A stretch of 3,518 nucleotides of DNA, from assembly GCF_003334355.1 (NCBI RefSeq), contig NZ_QOWP01000070.1, one strand, 5' to 3'. Each line of letters starts with the position of its first letter. Positions within the stretch are counted from its first letter, which is position 1. The position numbers and the translations under genes were made by a program. Positions 38-3,518 of the stretch are shown here, piece after piece. This DNA is from Escherichia coli (GTDB lineage: Bacteria > Pseudomonadota > Gammaproteobacteria > Enterobacterales > Enterobacteriaceae). The notes beneath the pieces are model-generated. The model did not search any database, was not told the origin of the DNA, and was given only the letters and a program-made list of their open reading frames with translations.

Positions 38-631
38 TCACAGATAAAACACTCTCCAGGAAACCCGGGGCGGTTCACGATGTTCAATAAAAGCATACCG
101 GACGACGGCATCGCCATAAATTTGTGCCTGGTGGACAATACGCGAGGCGCTAACCCTTGCGCGATCATAAATTTGTAGCAGGAGTTGATGGTCGGGCGTT
201 AAGCCTTGTGCGGCGACGATCATAGAATGTTGATCAATTAAGGCGTGACCAAATATTCTACATTGCCCGTAAACTAATGAGTCATGAATGGTGACACTGT
301 CACTTATATATGCACCCTGGCTGATTTCACTATTATCGATCCAGACATTATCCGTTGCGTGAACCTCTCCCCACAGCACGCTGGTGCCGGTGATACGCGT
401 ATTACCGGAAATCACCGTTCCGCCGAACGCAATAGCATTCTGGTCGTAAATCCAGCAATTTCCTTCCTGTGCTAACACCGTTTCGCGATCGATCCAGCCG
501 CCAGCGGTTCCTGCTATCACATCGTTAAAATCGCTAATGGCGATAATCTGCCGTAATAACACACTTTTTTTAGTGCCATCTTCCTGATAACTAAAGGCTC
601 GCTGTTCTTCACTTAGACGATATTTGCGCAT
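38..631 (-). CDS. ydcK: YdcK-like hexapeptide-repeat (left-handed beta-helix) acyl/acetyltransferase-family protein; 197-aa ORF, probably a frameshift-truncated copy of a longer gene (possible pseudogene)
   Basis: Minus-strand ORF from the track (ATG is the complement of 629-631, TGA the complement of 38-40). The translation is full of [LIV]-G-x-x-[STAV]-x type repeats ([46 protein letters not shown]). It is divergent from tehA, as ydcK is in E. coli. A second minus-strand frame stays open from about position 74 to the window edge and still looks repeat-like ([23 protein letters not shown]). Confidence 0.6.
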
Positions 632-754
632 AGCGTTTTCCCACAGGTGACTTACTATAACCGTAGCAAATTCTGCGGCTCTGGCTATGCTCGAGAAAAT
701 TCCATAAAATGCATTTCAAATATACTTTATAAATTAAACAAAATGAGTAAGAAG
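632..754. promoter_or_regulatory. Divergent intergenic region between ydcK and tehA; expected to hold both promoters. Only weak -10-like hexamers are visible (TATACT 721-726, TAAAAT 705-710) with no convincing -35 partner.
   Basis: 123-bp non-coding gap between two divergently oriented start codons. The box assignments are by eye only. Confidence 0.3.
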
Positions 755-1747
755 ATGCAGAGCGATAAAGTGCTCAATTTGCCGGCAGGCTACTTTGGTA
801 TTGTGTTGGGGACGATAGGGATGGGATTTGCCTGGCGCTATGCCAGCCAGGTTTGGCAGGTCAGCCACTGGTTAGGGGATGGGCTGGTGATTCTGGCGAT
901 GATCATCTGGGGATTATTAACTAGCGCATTTATTACCCGACTCATACGCTTTCCGCATAGCGTGCTGGCGGAAGTTCGCCATCCAGTGCTGAGCAGTTTT
1001 GTGAGTTTGTTTCCGGCAACGACGATGCTGGTGGCGATTGGTTTTGTTCCGTGGTTTCGCCCACTGGCGGTGTGCCTGTTCAGTTTTGGTGTCGTGGTTC
1101 AGTTGGCTTATGCCGCCTGGCAAACTGCGGGATTATGGCGCGGATCTCACCCTGAAGAAGCTACCACGCCTGGACTGTATCTGCCGACAGTTGCCAACAA
1201 CTTTATCAGCGCAATGGCCTGTGGTGCGTTGGGCTACACCGACGCCGGTCTGGTGTTTTTAGGCGCAGGCGTTTTCTCATGGCTAAGCCTTGAACCGGTG
1301 ATCTTGCAGCGTCTGCGCAGTTCGGGAGAATTACCCACGGCACTGCGGACATCACTCGGCATTCAGCTCGCTCCTGCGCTGGTGGCCTGTAGTGCCTGGC
1401 TGAGCGTCAACGGCGGCGAGGGTGACACGCTGGCGAAAATGCTTTTCGGTTATGGACTGCTGCAACTGCTGTTTATGCTACGTCTGATGCCATGGTATCT
1501 CTCCCAGCCATTTAATGCTTCATTCTGGAGTTTCTCGTTCGGCGTATCTGCACTGGCAACCACCGGTTTGCATCTGGGGAGTGGCAGCGATAATGGATTT
1601 TTCCATACGCTGGCGGTGCCGCTGTTTATCTTTACCAATTTTATTATTGCAATACTGCTCATCCGTACTTTTGCGCTTCTGATGCAGGGAAAATTGTTAG
1701 TCAGAACCGAGCGCGCCGTTTTAATGAAAGCAGAGGACAAAGAATGA
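755..1747 (+). CDS. tehA: Tellurite resistance protein TehA; TDT-family inner-membrane anion transporter, homologue of plant SLAC1 channels
   Basis: Long plus ORF (track 647..1747) encoding a strongly hydrophobic multi-pass membrane protein that I recognise as TehA. Start placed at ATG 755 ([19 protein letters not shown]...), which gives 330 aa and has a purine-rich GAGTAAGAAG just upstream. In-frame ATG 743 and GTG 647 are alternatives. The TGA stop at 1745-1747 overlaps the tehB ATG. Confidence 0.9.
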
Positions 1748-2337
1748 TCATTCGTGACGAAAACTATTTTACTGATAAATATGAATTAACCCGCACACAC
1801 TCTGAAGTACTGGAAGCGGTGAAAGTGGTTAAACCGGGTAAAACGCTGGATCTGGGCTGTGGCAATGGTCGTAACAGTCTTTACCTGGCAGCCAATGGTT
1901 ATGATGTTGACGCATGGGATAAAAATGCCATGAGTATCGCCAACGTCGAGCGCATTAAATCTATTGAAAATCTGGATAATTTACACACTCGGGTCGTTGA
2001 TCTGAATAACCTCACATTTGCTGGACAGTACGATTTTATTCTTTCGACTGTGGTGCTGATGTTCCTTGAGGCTAAAACCATCCCAGGGCTGATTGCCAAT
2101 ATGCAACGTTGCACGAAACCTGGCGGTTACAACCTGATTGTGGCGGCGATGGATAGCGCTGATTATCCATGTACCGTCGGCTTCCCGTTTGCCTTCAAAG
2201 AGAGAGAATTACGTCGATATTACGAAGGCTGGGAGATGGTGAAATACAATGAAGACGTCGGCGAGCTGCACCGCACCGACGCCAACGGTAATCGTATTAA
2301 ACTGCGTTTCGCCACGATGCTGGCACGTAAAAAATGA
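1744..2337 (+). CDS. tehB: Tellurite resistance protein TehB; class I SAM-dependent methyltransferase
   Basis: 197-aa ORF. SAM-binding motif I LDLGCGNG at 1846-1869 ([17 protein letters not shown]). The overall sequence matches what I know as E. coli TehB. Its start overlaps the tehA stop in ATGA (1744-1747), and AGAGGA lies about 10 nt upstream inside tehA. Confidence 0.95.
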
Positions 2338-2343
2338 CCCGGT

Positions 2344-2398
2344 AAGAACAAAGCGCGTGAAAATTCCCCACGCTGAGATGGTTTACTGTTCTTCTTTT
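2344..2398 (+). terminator. Weak candidate stem-loop with T-tract downstream of tehB
   Basis: AAGAACA (2344-2350) pairs with TGTTCTT (2387-2393), enclosing an inner GCGTG/CACGC stem (2355-2359 with 2369-2373), followed by CTTTT (2394-2398). The outer stem is AT-rich and the loop large, so this is not a canonical intrinsic terminator. Confidence 0.2.
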
Positions 2399-2497
2399 CG
2401 GTAAGCATATTTTTTATCGAAGGGATGTGAAATTAATCACAGTAGTCGAAGTTTTTTAGCAGCTTAACTAACTGAAATTTAACTACTGATGATTGAC

Positions 2498-2543
2498 TTA
2501 GCCCCTTTTTCGGCATTGACTATGTCGTCTGAAAAGGGGCTAA
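2498..2543. repeat. Perfect 12-bp inverted repeat (TTAGCCCCTTTT / AAAAGGGGCTAA) separated by 22 nt, in the tehB-ydcL spacer
   Basis: Arms 2498-2509 and 2532-2543 are exact reverse complements. The 7-mer ATTGACT occurs as a direct repeat at 2492-2498 and 2515-2521, the second copy inside the loop. An A6 run follows, not a T-run. Confidence 0.5.
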
Positions 2544-2594
2544 AAAATTTATTTTCACCAACACTTTTTTTGCCACAACACGAAGCGGCGCTTT

Positions 2595-2631
2595 TTGCTA
2601 TAACTTAAAAAGTAATATAATCATCTCAGGA
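2595..2631 (+). promoter_or_regulatory. Candidate ydcL promoter and ribosome-binding site: -35-like TTGCTA (2595-2600), consensus -10 TATAAT (2616-2621), Shine-Dalgarno AGGA (2628-2631) 8 nt before the ATG
   Basis: Exact TATAAT hexamer 19 nt upstream of the ydcL start, and AGGA at canonical spacing. The -35 match is weak and the spacer is only 15 bp, so the promoter call is tentative; the RBS is solid. Confidence 0.3.
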
Positions 2632-2639
2632 AACTATTC

Positions 2640-3308
2640 ATGCGTACCACATCATTTGCGAAAGTTGCAGCTTTATGCGGCTTATTGGCTCTGTCTGGTT
2701 GTGCCTCTAAAATCACCCAGCCAGATAAATATTCTGGTTTTTTAAACAATTACTCTGATTTAAAAGAAACAACCTCGGCTACAGGTAAACCTGTTTTACG
2801 TTGGGTAGACCCGAGTTTTGATCAAAGCAAATATGACAGCATCGTCTGGAACCCAATCACTTATTATCCGGTACCGAAACCGTCGACCCAGGTAGGGCAG
2901 AAAGTTCTGGATAAAATTTTGAACTATACCAACACCGAAATGAAAGAAGCGATAGCGCAGCGTAAACCACTGGTTACCACCGCTGGGCCGCGTAGTCTGA
3001 TTTTCCGTGGGGCCATTACCGGTGTAGATACCAGCAAAGAAGGGCTGCAATTCTATGAAGTGGTTCCTGTTGCATTAGTGGTTGCGGGGACGCAAATGGC
3101 TACAGGCCACCGTACCATGGATACTCGCCTCTATTTTGAAGGTGAGCTGATTGATGCAGCGACTAATAAACCGGTTATCAAAGTCGTTCGTCAGGGCGAA
3201 GGTAAAGACCTGAATAACGAAAGTACGCCAATGGCTTTCGAAAATATTAAACAAGTTATTGATGACATGGCGACCGATGCCACCATGTTTGACGTTAACA
3301 AAAAGTAG
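2640..3308 (+). CDS. ydcL: Lipoprotein YdcL (DUF3313-type, function unknown); probable outer-membrane lipoprotein
   Basis: 222-aa ORF. The N-terminus MRTTSFAKVAALCGLLALSGCAS is a signal peptide with lipobox L-S-G-C (2691-2702); Ala at +2 predicts Lol sorting to the outer membrane. Good SD, TAG stop at 3306-3308. Confidence 0.9.
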   Translation: MRTTSFAKVAALCGLLALSGCASKITQPDKYSGFLNNYSDLKETTSATGKPVLRWVDPSFDQSKYDSIVWNPITYYPVPKPSTQVGQKVLDKILNYTNTEMKEAIAQRKPLVTTAGPRSLIFRGAITGVDTSKEGLQFYEVVPVALVVAGTQMATGHRTMDTRLYFEGELIDAATNKPVIKVVRQGEGKDLNNESTPMAFENIKQVIDDMATDATMFDVNKK

Positions 3309-3316
3309 TTCCAGAC

Positions 3317-3341
3317 GCGCCATCGTTAGATGGCGCTTTTT
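3317..3341 (+). terminator. Rho-independent terminator downstream of ydcL
   Basis: Perfect 8-bp stem GCGCCATC (3317-3324) with GATGGCGC (3329-3336), 4-nt loop GTTA, then TTTTT (3337-3341). It starts 9 nt after the ydcL stop. Confidence 0.6.
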
Positions 3342-3518
3342 ATCCGGTGCGCCGTAAAACCCCATCCTTCAGGGCGGGGATATAAGGCGCGGTTTTCCAC
3401 CTGACCAGGTGTTTGCTGTTGTTCAATGTATTGGCGGATGACGGATATTGGCGCACCTCCGCAGCTACTGGCAAAATAGCCAGGACTCCACAAAACGCCT
3501 TTGTAGTAATACCTGACT
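3326..3518 (-). CDS. tnpA: IS200/IS605-family transposase TnpA (Y1 HUH tyrosine transposase), C-terminal fragment; gene continues beyond the 3' edge of the window
   Basis: Minus-strand frame open from the window edge to TAA (complement of 3326-3328). It translates to VRYYYKGVLWSPGYFASSCGGAPISVIRQYIEQQQTPGQVENRALYPRPEGWGFTAHRIKSAI*. The stretch LWSPGYFASSCGGAPISVIRQYIEQQQ matches the conserved C-terminal helix of IS200/IS605 TnpA that carries the catalytic tyrosine, as I recall it from IS608 TnpA (not an aligned comparison). The ORF track omits it because no start codon lies within the window. Confidence 0.6.
   Translation of the reverse strand, partial: VRYYYKGVLWSPGYFASSCGGAPISVIRQYIEQQQTPGQVENRALYPRPEGWGFTAHRIKSAI
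3344..3518 (-). mobile_element. End of an IS200/IS605-family insertion sequence (IS609-like), partial; exact junction with the chromosome uncertain, roughly 3309-3349
   Basis: Contains the TnpA C-terminus and an adjacent imperfect palindrome. A TTTAT pentanucleotide sits at 3339-3343; this family inserts 3' of short AT-rich target motifs. An IS609 copy downstream of ydcL is known in E. coli K-12. Confidence 0.4.
3349..3390. repeat. Imperfect palindrome: 19-nt arms (3349-3367 and 3372-3390) with a 4-nt loop; candidate subterminal hairpin of the IS200/IS605-family element
   Basis: Pairing the arms gives 14 Watson-Crick pairs plus one G-T, with mismatches spread through the stem. IS200/IS605 ends carry imperfect subterminal hairpins of this kind, recognised by TnpA. 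It overlaps the last codons of tnpA. Confidence 0.4.

Follow-up and report, generated by a model that had tools for sequence, protein, structure and literature searches.

The locus described here raises the question of why a transposase gene comes to an end within the hairpin that follows its neighbour. In a stretch of 3518 bp of Escherichia coli DNA (the window, at its full length), the tnpA frame of the minus strand stops inside the loop of a hairpin located directly after ydcL, and this hairpin could belong either to the chromosome or to the insertion sequence (IS) that carries tnpA. We consider it very probable, taking the explanation as a whole, that the hairpin and its T tract (3317-3341) constitute the Rho-independent terminator of ydcL, a chromosomal feature, that IS609 inserted beside it and that tnpA has lost its own stop codon. 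The window is an entire draft contig (GCA_003334355.1, QOWP01000070.1) in which the left end of IS609 comes after the genes ydcK'-tehA-tehB-ydcL. Both of its ends break in repeats, an IS3-family end on one side and IS609 on the other, where window and contig end inside tnpA. The features relevant to the argument are the following:

2640-3308, plus strand: ydcL coding sequence, a DUF3313 lipoprotein (open reading frame list; PGAP annotation of the identical sequence in L002, L003 and L012).
3317-3341, plus strand: predicted chromosomal intrinsic terminator of ydcL (terminator scan, fold, IS-free genomes).
3340-3343, plus strand: TTAT, the target and left cleavage tetranucleotide of IS609, in flanking DNA outside the IS (invariant at 8 aligned sites).
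3344-3518, plus strand: left end of IS609, IS200/IS605 family (empty versus occupied site; 97-100% identity to other IS609 copies).
3360-3379, plus strand: left subterminal imperfect hairpin of IS609, CCCCATCC-TTCA-GGGCGGGG (fold).
3326-3403, minus strand: read-through tail of the tnpA frame (translations).
3401-3403, minus strand: CAG codon at the position of the TAG stop of O157:H7, codon 144 (alignment, codon table, homologue ends).
3404-3518, minus strand: 3' part of tnpA proper, encoding a Y1 HUH transposase with the putative catalytic-tyrosine helix motif RQYIEQQ (Pfam Y1_Tnp).

ydcL ends at a TAG codon (3306-3308). Downstream of it, GCGCCATC (3317-3324) pairs perfectly over 8 bp with GATGGCGC (3329-3336), enclosing a GTTA loop (3325-3328) and preceding a T5 tract (3337-3341). 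The minus-strand open reading frame 3326-3493 terminates at a TAA that is the complement of 3326-3328, within the GTTA loop, leaving a stop-to-stop gap of 17 bp (3309-3325). All of these coordinates had been given correctly in the preliminary description, as verified with the open reading frame list and the terminator scan. Six of the 8 pairs are G-C, the hairpin ranks first among the terminator-like sites of the window in the scan, and the fold of the 101 nt around it shows a z of -3.6 against shuffles. A G+C-rich 8-bp stem, a loop of 4 and T5, starting 8 nt after the TAG, correspond to a Rho-independent terminator on the plus strand, the only strand on which the scan finds the terminator consensus. 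From these characteristics, the hairpin is predicted to terminate ydcL transcripts. An Rfam search of the window and of the full locus at the gathering threshold returned zero matches. Another hairpin, GCCCCTTTTTCGG...CTGAAAAGGGGC, is located at approximately 2501-2540 in the tehB-ydcL intergenic region (window 2338-2639, 300 bp), and no Rfam family matches it.

The ownership of the ydcL hairpin was addressed by searching a query spanning the ydcL-IS609 junction (3100-3518) against 5426 complete E. coli genomes. The site was found to be occupied in 3255 of them, as judged by one place covering at least 80% of the query. In the 15 IS-free genomes that were sampled, the match ends at window position 3341-3343 and ydcO follows. 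IS-free E. coli has the same hairpin and T tract without any change, within the 34 bp that separate the stop codons of the convergent genes ydcL and ydcO; the convergent partner of ydcL at the hairpin is thus ydcO, not tnpA, in this arrangement. With a slash marking the junctions, the empty site reads ...GATGGCGCTTTTTAT/TATCGGTTTCTG... (L001) and the occupied site ...GATGGCGCTTTTTAT/CCGGTGCGCC...GGATGTCAA/TATCGGTTTCTG... (L002). At the junctions themselves, ...TTTTTAT/TATCGG in the empty site is replaced by ...TTTTTAT/CCGGTGCG...GATGTCAA/TATCGG in the occupied one, with no duplication. An empty-site comparison had been suggested as the means of assigning the hairpin to one owner or the other, and that of L001 with L002 assigns it to the chromosome.

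The insertion also affects the end of ydcO. In IS-free genomes, this gene ends ...NRNR-TAA-TAA, and the first TAA overlaps the TTAT target (L001 1744-1749), such that IS609 splits the ydcO stop codon upon insertion. In occupied genomes, including K-12, ydcO ends ...RNRY-TGA (L002 5989-5997), with a tyrosine codon spanning the IS-flank junction and a TGA derived from the right end of the IS, GTCAA. The annotated lengths of ydcO agree with this, being 1173 nt in IS-free and 1176 nt in occupied genomes.

The alternative reading that survives best concerns the direction of termination. The preliminary description had proposed that the hairpin probably terminates transcription from both sides, in which case it would also end tnpA transcripts or other minus-strand transcripts leaving the IS and would shield ydcL from antisense RNA. 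The stem is a perfect palindrome, and the same hairpin can form in minus-strand RNA, where it is lengthened by CCGGAU/GUCUGG pairing (-21.4 kcal/mol, z = -4.0); in the ancestral arrangement, moreover, the hairpin comes 7 nt after the ydcO stop. The resemblance to intrinsic terminators shared by convergent genes is evident in the G+C-rich 8-bp stem, the 4-nt loop and the T5 directly after ydcL, as well as in the location between the ydcL and ydcO stop codons of IS-free genomes. In contrast to such shared terminators, the ydcL hairpin is asymmetric: 12 nt separate the stem from the A run upstream of it, which leaves the minus-strand hairpin with no adjacent U tract. On that strand the hairpin is followed by GUCUGGAACUACUUUUU, in which GUCUGGAACUAC comes ahead of any U run (UUUUU), and the scan detected zero minus-strand sites at the hairpin. 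In addition, a ribosome stopping in the loop would be expected to hold the hairpin open. Bidirectional action is therefore possible but unsupported by the sequence, and we regard it as rather doubtful.

As a further test of the ownership of the hairpin, IS609 copies from seven other insertion sites were aligned with the ydcL site, giving 8 sites in all. Two of these other insertions interrupt genes, namely a TetR-family pseudogene located between yjfZ and ytfB (represented by two strains) and a DUF3251 gene; the remaining ones follow yfaY, gltX or a DUF1869 gene beside yeaR, or lie between ybcM and yedK. TTAT/CCGGTGCGCCGTAAAACCCC... is common to all aligned copies, and at all eight sites TTAT is followed by CCGGTGCGCC..., the sequence to the left of TTAT being unrelated. 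The complete element measures 1748 bp (L002 4245-5992), exactly the difference between the empty and occupied junctions. At the ydcL site, TTAT is the end of the terminator T tract (TTTTTAT), and insertion took place 3' of it without target-site duplication, as is typical of the IS200/IS605 family. The assignment to IS609 is further based on 98% nucleotide identity over 501 bp to the O157:H7 copies annotated IS609, whose protein is named "IS200/IS605-like element IS609 family transposase" by PGAP. K-12 carries the same element at the same chromosomal site, between ydcL and ydcO, consisting of the tnpA pseudogene yncK and insQ/tnpB. No essential difference from known E. coli IS609 was observed, apart from the CAG codon of the window allele, which replaces the TAG stop of O157:H7, and a tryptophan in place of arginine in the hairpin-encoded part of the tail.

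Both ends of IS609 carry subterminal imperfect hairpins in direct orientation, without terminal inverted repeats, which is again characteristic of this family. The left hairpin contains an A-C mismatch in the window copy, the other copies having a G, and the right hairpin, CCACGTCC-TTCA-GGGCGTGG, lies at L002 5963-5982. The two form a 21-nt direct repeat (86%), including one compensatory change from C-G to A-T. TTAT, where the left end is cleaved, lies 16 nt before the left hairpin, the right end closes with TCAA 10 nt past the hairpin foot, and an AAAA (3356-3359) precedes the left hairpin.

In IS608 of Helicobacter pylori, which serves as the mechanistic model of the family, the guide sequence AAAG pairs with TTAC. 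This TTAC is found 19 nt 5' of the left IS608 hairpin and TCAA 10 nt 3' of the right one, with guide tetranucleotides 5' of each hairpin foot (PMC3201880). IS609 resembles IS608 in its Y1 HUH TnpA, in its direct-orientation subterminal imperfect hairpins, in its insertion 3' of a tetranucleotide without duplication, in its TCAA right end 10 nt after the hairpin foot, and in having, 5' of the left hairpin, a tetranucleotide with the potential to pair with the target. Given that AAAA 3356-3359 occupies the position of the IS608 guide sequence, it may, by analogy, fulfil the same role (PMC3201880). IS609 differs from IS608 in its target, TTAT rather than TTAC, and in the distance from left cleavage site to hairpin, 16 nt rather than 19 nt. 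A further difference is the divergent orientation of the two IS609 genes, with tnpA on the minus and insQ/tnpB on the plus strand, which makes the left end of the element and the 3' end of tnpA overlap. Owing to this overlap, a stop loss can run into the flank.

Several other observations were made on IS609 copies. At the gltX site (L008 2457-2500), the copy immediately follows a terminator-like hairpin with its T tract, ACGGCAGG...CCTGCCGTTTTTTATTTAT/, and two of the 8 sites (ydcL and gltX) therefore have their TTAT at the end of a T tract, which could reflect target composition or preference. At the ybcM-yedK site (L014 and L015; locus 2333-2872), a variant with a tnpA of approximately 95% identity is present, in which homology is missing for the first 117 bp of the IS609 left end and tnpB is truncated. 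Its tnpA is annotated as an intact open reading frame (174-179 aa), and the variant seems to be an IS609 relative in decay. An exact 12-nt repeat, ATATCGGTTTCT, occurs once inside tnpA (L002 4699-4710) and once across the right IS-flank junction (5992-6003). Self-targeting by a TnpB guide through this repeat was considered and rejected: the internal copy is preceded by CCGG, not TTAT, and the repeat is probably due to chance.

The opposite end of the contig was also inspected. At positions 1-77, the window shares 100% identity with the terminal 77 bp of IS1203/IS629-type IS3-family copies (L005 4439-4515 and L013 7360-7436), indicating that an element of this type inserted in ydcK. The gene is cut to a 197-aa open reading frame (38-631, minus strand), of which the last 13 codons or so are IS-derived. 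No complete E. coli genome among those searched contains the junction of IS3-family sequence and ydcK in one piece. Besides the IS3-family sequence, the window differs from other strains by indels.

The homology of TnpA, which the preliminary description had left in need of support, is clear: the Pfam family Y1_Tnp (PF01797) matches with E = 8e-40 over the full model (1-121 of 121; residues 18-139), and both the HVH motif and the RQYIEQQ tyrosine helix are present. The tyrosine of RQYIEQQ is likely the catalytic one, by analogy with Y127 of IS608 (PMC3201880). The domain ends at residue 139 (3416-3418), shortly before the position where tnpA normally stops. In O157:H7, TnpA comprises 143 aa, with a TAG after ...EQQQTPG, 19 codons inside the IS. 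At codon 144, CAG is found in the window and in every other sampled IS609 copy besides that of O157:H7; the TAG allele was detected as an exact 47-mer in 1258 of the 4316 records having the region. Among the TnpA homologues with 80-87% identity, found in Salmonella, Photorhabdus, Proteus, Morganella and Klebsiella, the only lengths are 138, 143 and 146 aa, and all four with retrieved sequence, including those of Salmonella, Proteus and Photorhabdus, terminate in EQQQTPG or EQQQTPS. The extension of tnpA is thus best read as a stop loss, and the outgroup protein lengths suggest that the change was from TAG to CAG.

The tnpA frame extends into the flank only because CAG stands in place of the normal TAG. 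The IS boundary coincides exactly with a codon boundary, with 163 tnpA codons inside the IS, and the tail consists of 25 codons, 20 encoded by the IS (3344-3403, QVENRALYPRPEGWGFTAHR) and 5 by the flank (3329-3343, IKSAI), followed by TAA 3326-3328. Within it, the left hairpin is translated as PRPEGWG. The preliminary description had offered a chimeric C-terminus supplied by flanking DNA as one possibility; this holds at the level of the open reading frame, but the flank contributes five codons and the stop rather than "six or so" codons.

The E. coli IS609 tails are site-specific. The extensions start with RI and a codon beginning with A, the frame beyond the IS always opening with isoleucine (ATA, from TTAT). 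The flank provides IKSAI and a stop at the ydcL site, INQAKRML... (41 codons) at yjfZ-ytfB, 12 codons in the DUF3251 gene, 17 at gltX, 38 at yfaY, approximately 60 at ybcM and more than 70 at the DUF1869 gene. In the database, E. coli IS609 proteins are accordingly of 143, 160, 163, 168, 173, 177, 199, 204, 213, 222 and 224 aa. The ydcL-site product (P0005) is 168 aa long, ends in IKSAI and represents a cluster of 1137 sequences; in a variant from the same site (P0001, 213 aa), a leucine replaces the loop stop and the frame continues antisense to ydcL. Since at other sites this frame stays open for 12 to more than 70 codons of flank, the stop in the loop is a coincidence. Its placement looks like chance, the loop providing the first stop that the frame meets beyond the IS, and the tail would have no function.

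The following sequence of events best accounts for these observations. The ydcL hairpin, lying between the convergent genes ydcL and ydcO, predates IS609. The element inserted, presumably by the single-strand mechanism of the IS200/IS605 family, exactly 3' of the TTAT closing the T tract, which left the hairpin and T tract intact and no target duplication, with the IS starting at window position 3344. With the stop lost (CAG for TAG after ...EQQQTPG), the tnpA frame crosses the 60-nt left end, including the hairpin at 3360-3379, exits the IS in phase and halts at the first in-frame stop outside, the TAA provided by the loop of the ydcL hairpin. The overlap of stop codon and loop is a by-product of the landing place of the IS and not a designed feature.

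With regard to the direction of the stop change, both alleles are found at the yjfZ-ytfB site, where O157:H7 has TAG and another strain CAG (locus position 2558-2560; L004 versus L009). Reversion or gene conversion has therefore occurred, which bears against the inference of direction. Together with the presence of an internal TGA allele in IS609 copies at both the ydcL and ybcM sites, the two alleles at one site suggest gene conversion or recombination between IS609 copies. The TGA lies in frame at tnpA codon 96 (SGR-stop-LRR) in the closest complete genomes, namely PSS-12, which is a 100% match over window 78-3518, strain 504239 and K-12. It corresponds to window-equivalent 3545-3547, 27 nt past the window end; the source contig breaks inside IS609 before codon 96, and the TGA readings come from these other genomes. 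The exact 61-mer with the TGA is present in 2565 of 4998 records, and PGAP marks tnpA as a pseudogene in L002, L003 (K-12) and L012. In the nearest complete genomes, therefore, TnpA is unlikely to be produced at full length. For K-12, a stop codon in the transposase gene yncK and an absence of transposition have been reported (PMC2891674), and IS609 was responsible for 0 of 857 IS events in mutation-accumulation lines (PMC5009759).

One may nevertheless ask whether the chimeric 168-aa TnpA ending in IKSAI is real, expressed and active where the ydcL-site copy lacks the TGA, its tail being tolerated or functional. An intact ydcL-site allele exists in many genomes, the open reading frame being predicted in many assemblies (P0005, and P0016, which is N-terminally shorter and has a cluster of 155), and the extension starts past a complete Y1_Tnp domain and need not disrupt the fold. 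However, the tail is a mere translation of the left end and the flank, is wholly different between sites and is missing in the homologues of other genera. Moreover, thousands of genomes have IS609 at a small common set of chromosomal sites, a pattern suggesting that the element has moved little of late, and the K-12 studies cited above revealed no activity. We therefore consider an active chimeric enzyme unlikely.

The IS200 left end carries a terminator-like hairpin that blocks read-in transcription. The ydcL-site hairpin is similar to that of Salmonella IS200 in that it adjoins the end of an IS200/IS605-family element, at only 7 nt from the boundary, and could block read-in transcription; it differs in being host DNA older than the insertion and in the orientation of tnpA, which points outward, not inward. 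The reading in which the hairpin is such a structure of IS609 itself has a negligible probability and is refuted by the empty-site and multi-copy comparisons: the hairpin and T tract are unchanged in IS-free genomes and do not travel with the element, being absent at the seven other aligned sites, where homology begins at TTAT/CCGG, and the subterminal hairpin of the element is a different sequence (3360-3379). The preliminary description had named an identical hairpin and tail on other IS copies as the mark of IS ownership, and none of the copies at the seven other sites carries the hairpin.

The most probable explanation, a chromosomal terminator with IS609 beside it and a lost tnpA stop, is of little importance beyond annotation and leaves the understanding of the family unchanged. 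The presence of IS609 at the well-known ydcL-ydcO site beside an ordinary terminator is already known, and the chimeric tail, which the stop loss explains, is probably of no consequence. A broader interpretation, which we regard as highly unlikely, is that most E. coli IS609 tnpA genes have no stop of their own and that the TnpA tail, with 5 residues at ydcL and from 12 to over 70 at other sites, is set by each insertion site and might modulate or abolish transposase activity in individual copies; separately, TTAT at the end of terminator T tracts (ydcL and gltX) might be preferred as a "safe" landing place, out of reach of read-in transcription. A stop codon within a terminator loop is an oddity at the level of the open reading frame, arising from an IS200/IS605 insertion and a stop-loss mutation. 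The lost stop explains the inconsistent ends and lengths (143 to 224 aa) given to IS609 tnpA by gene callers and PGAP, often with the remark "missing C-terminus". In IS-bearing strains, including K-12, YdcO for its part has a C-terminal tyrosine at the junction, followed by an IS-encoded stop codon.
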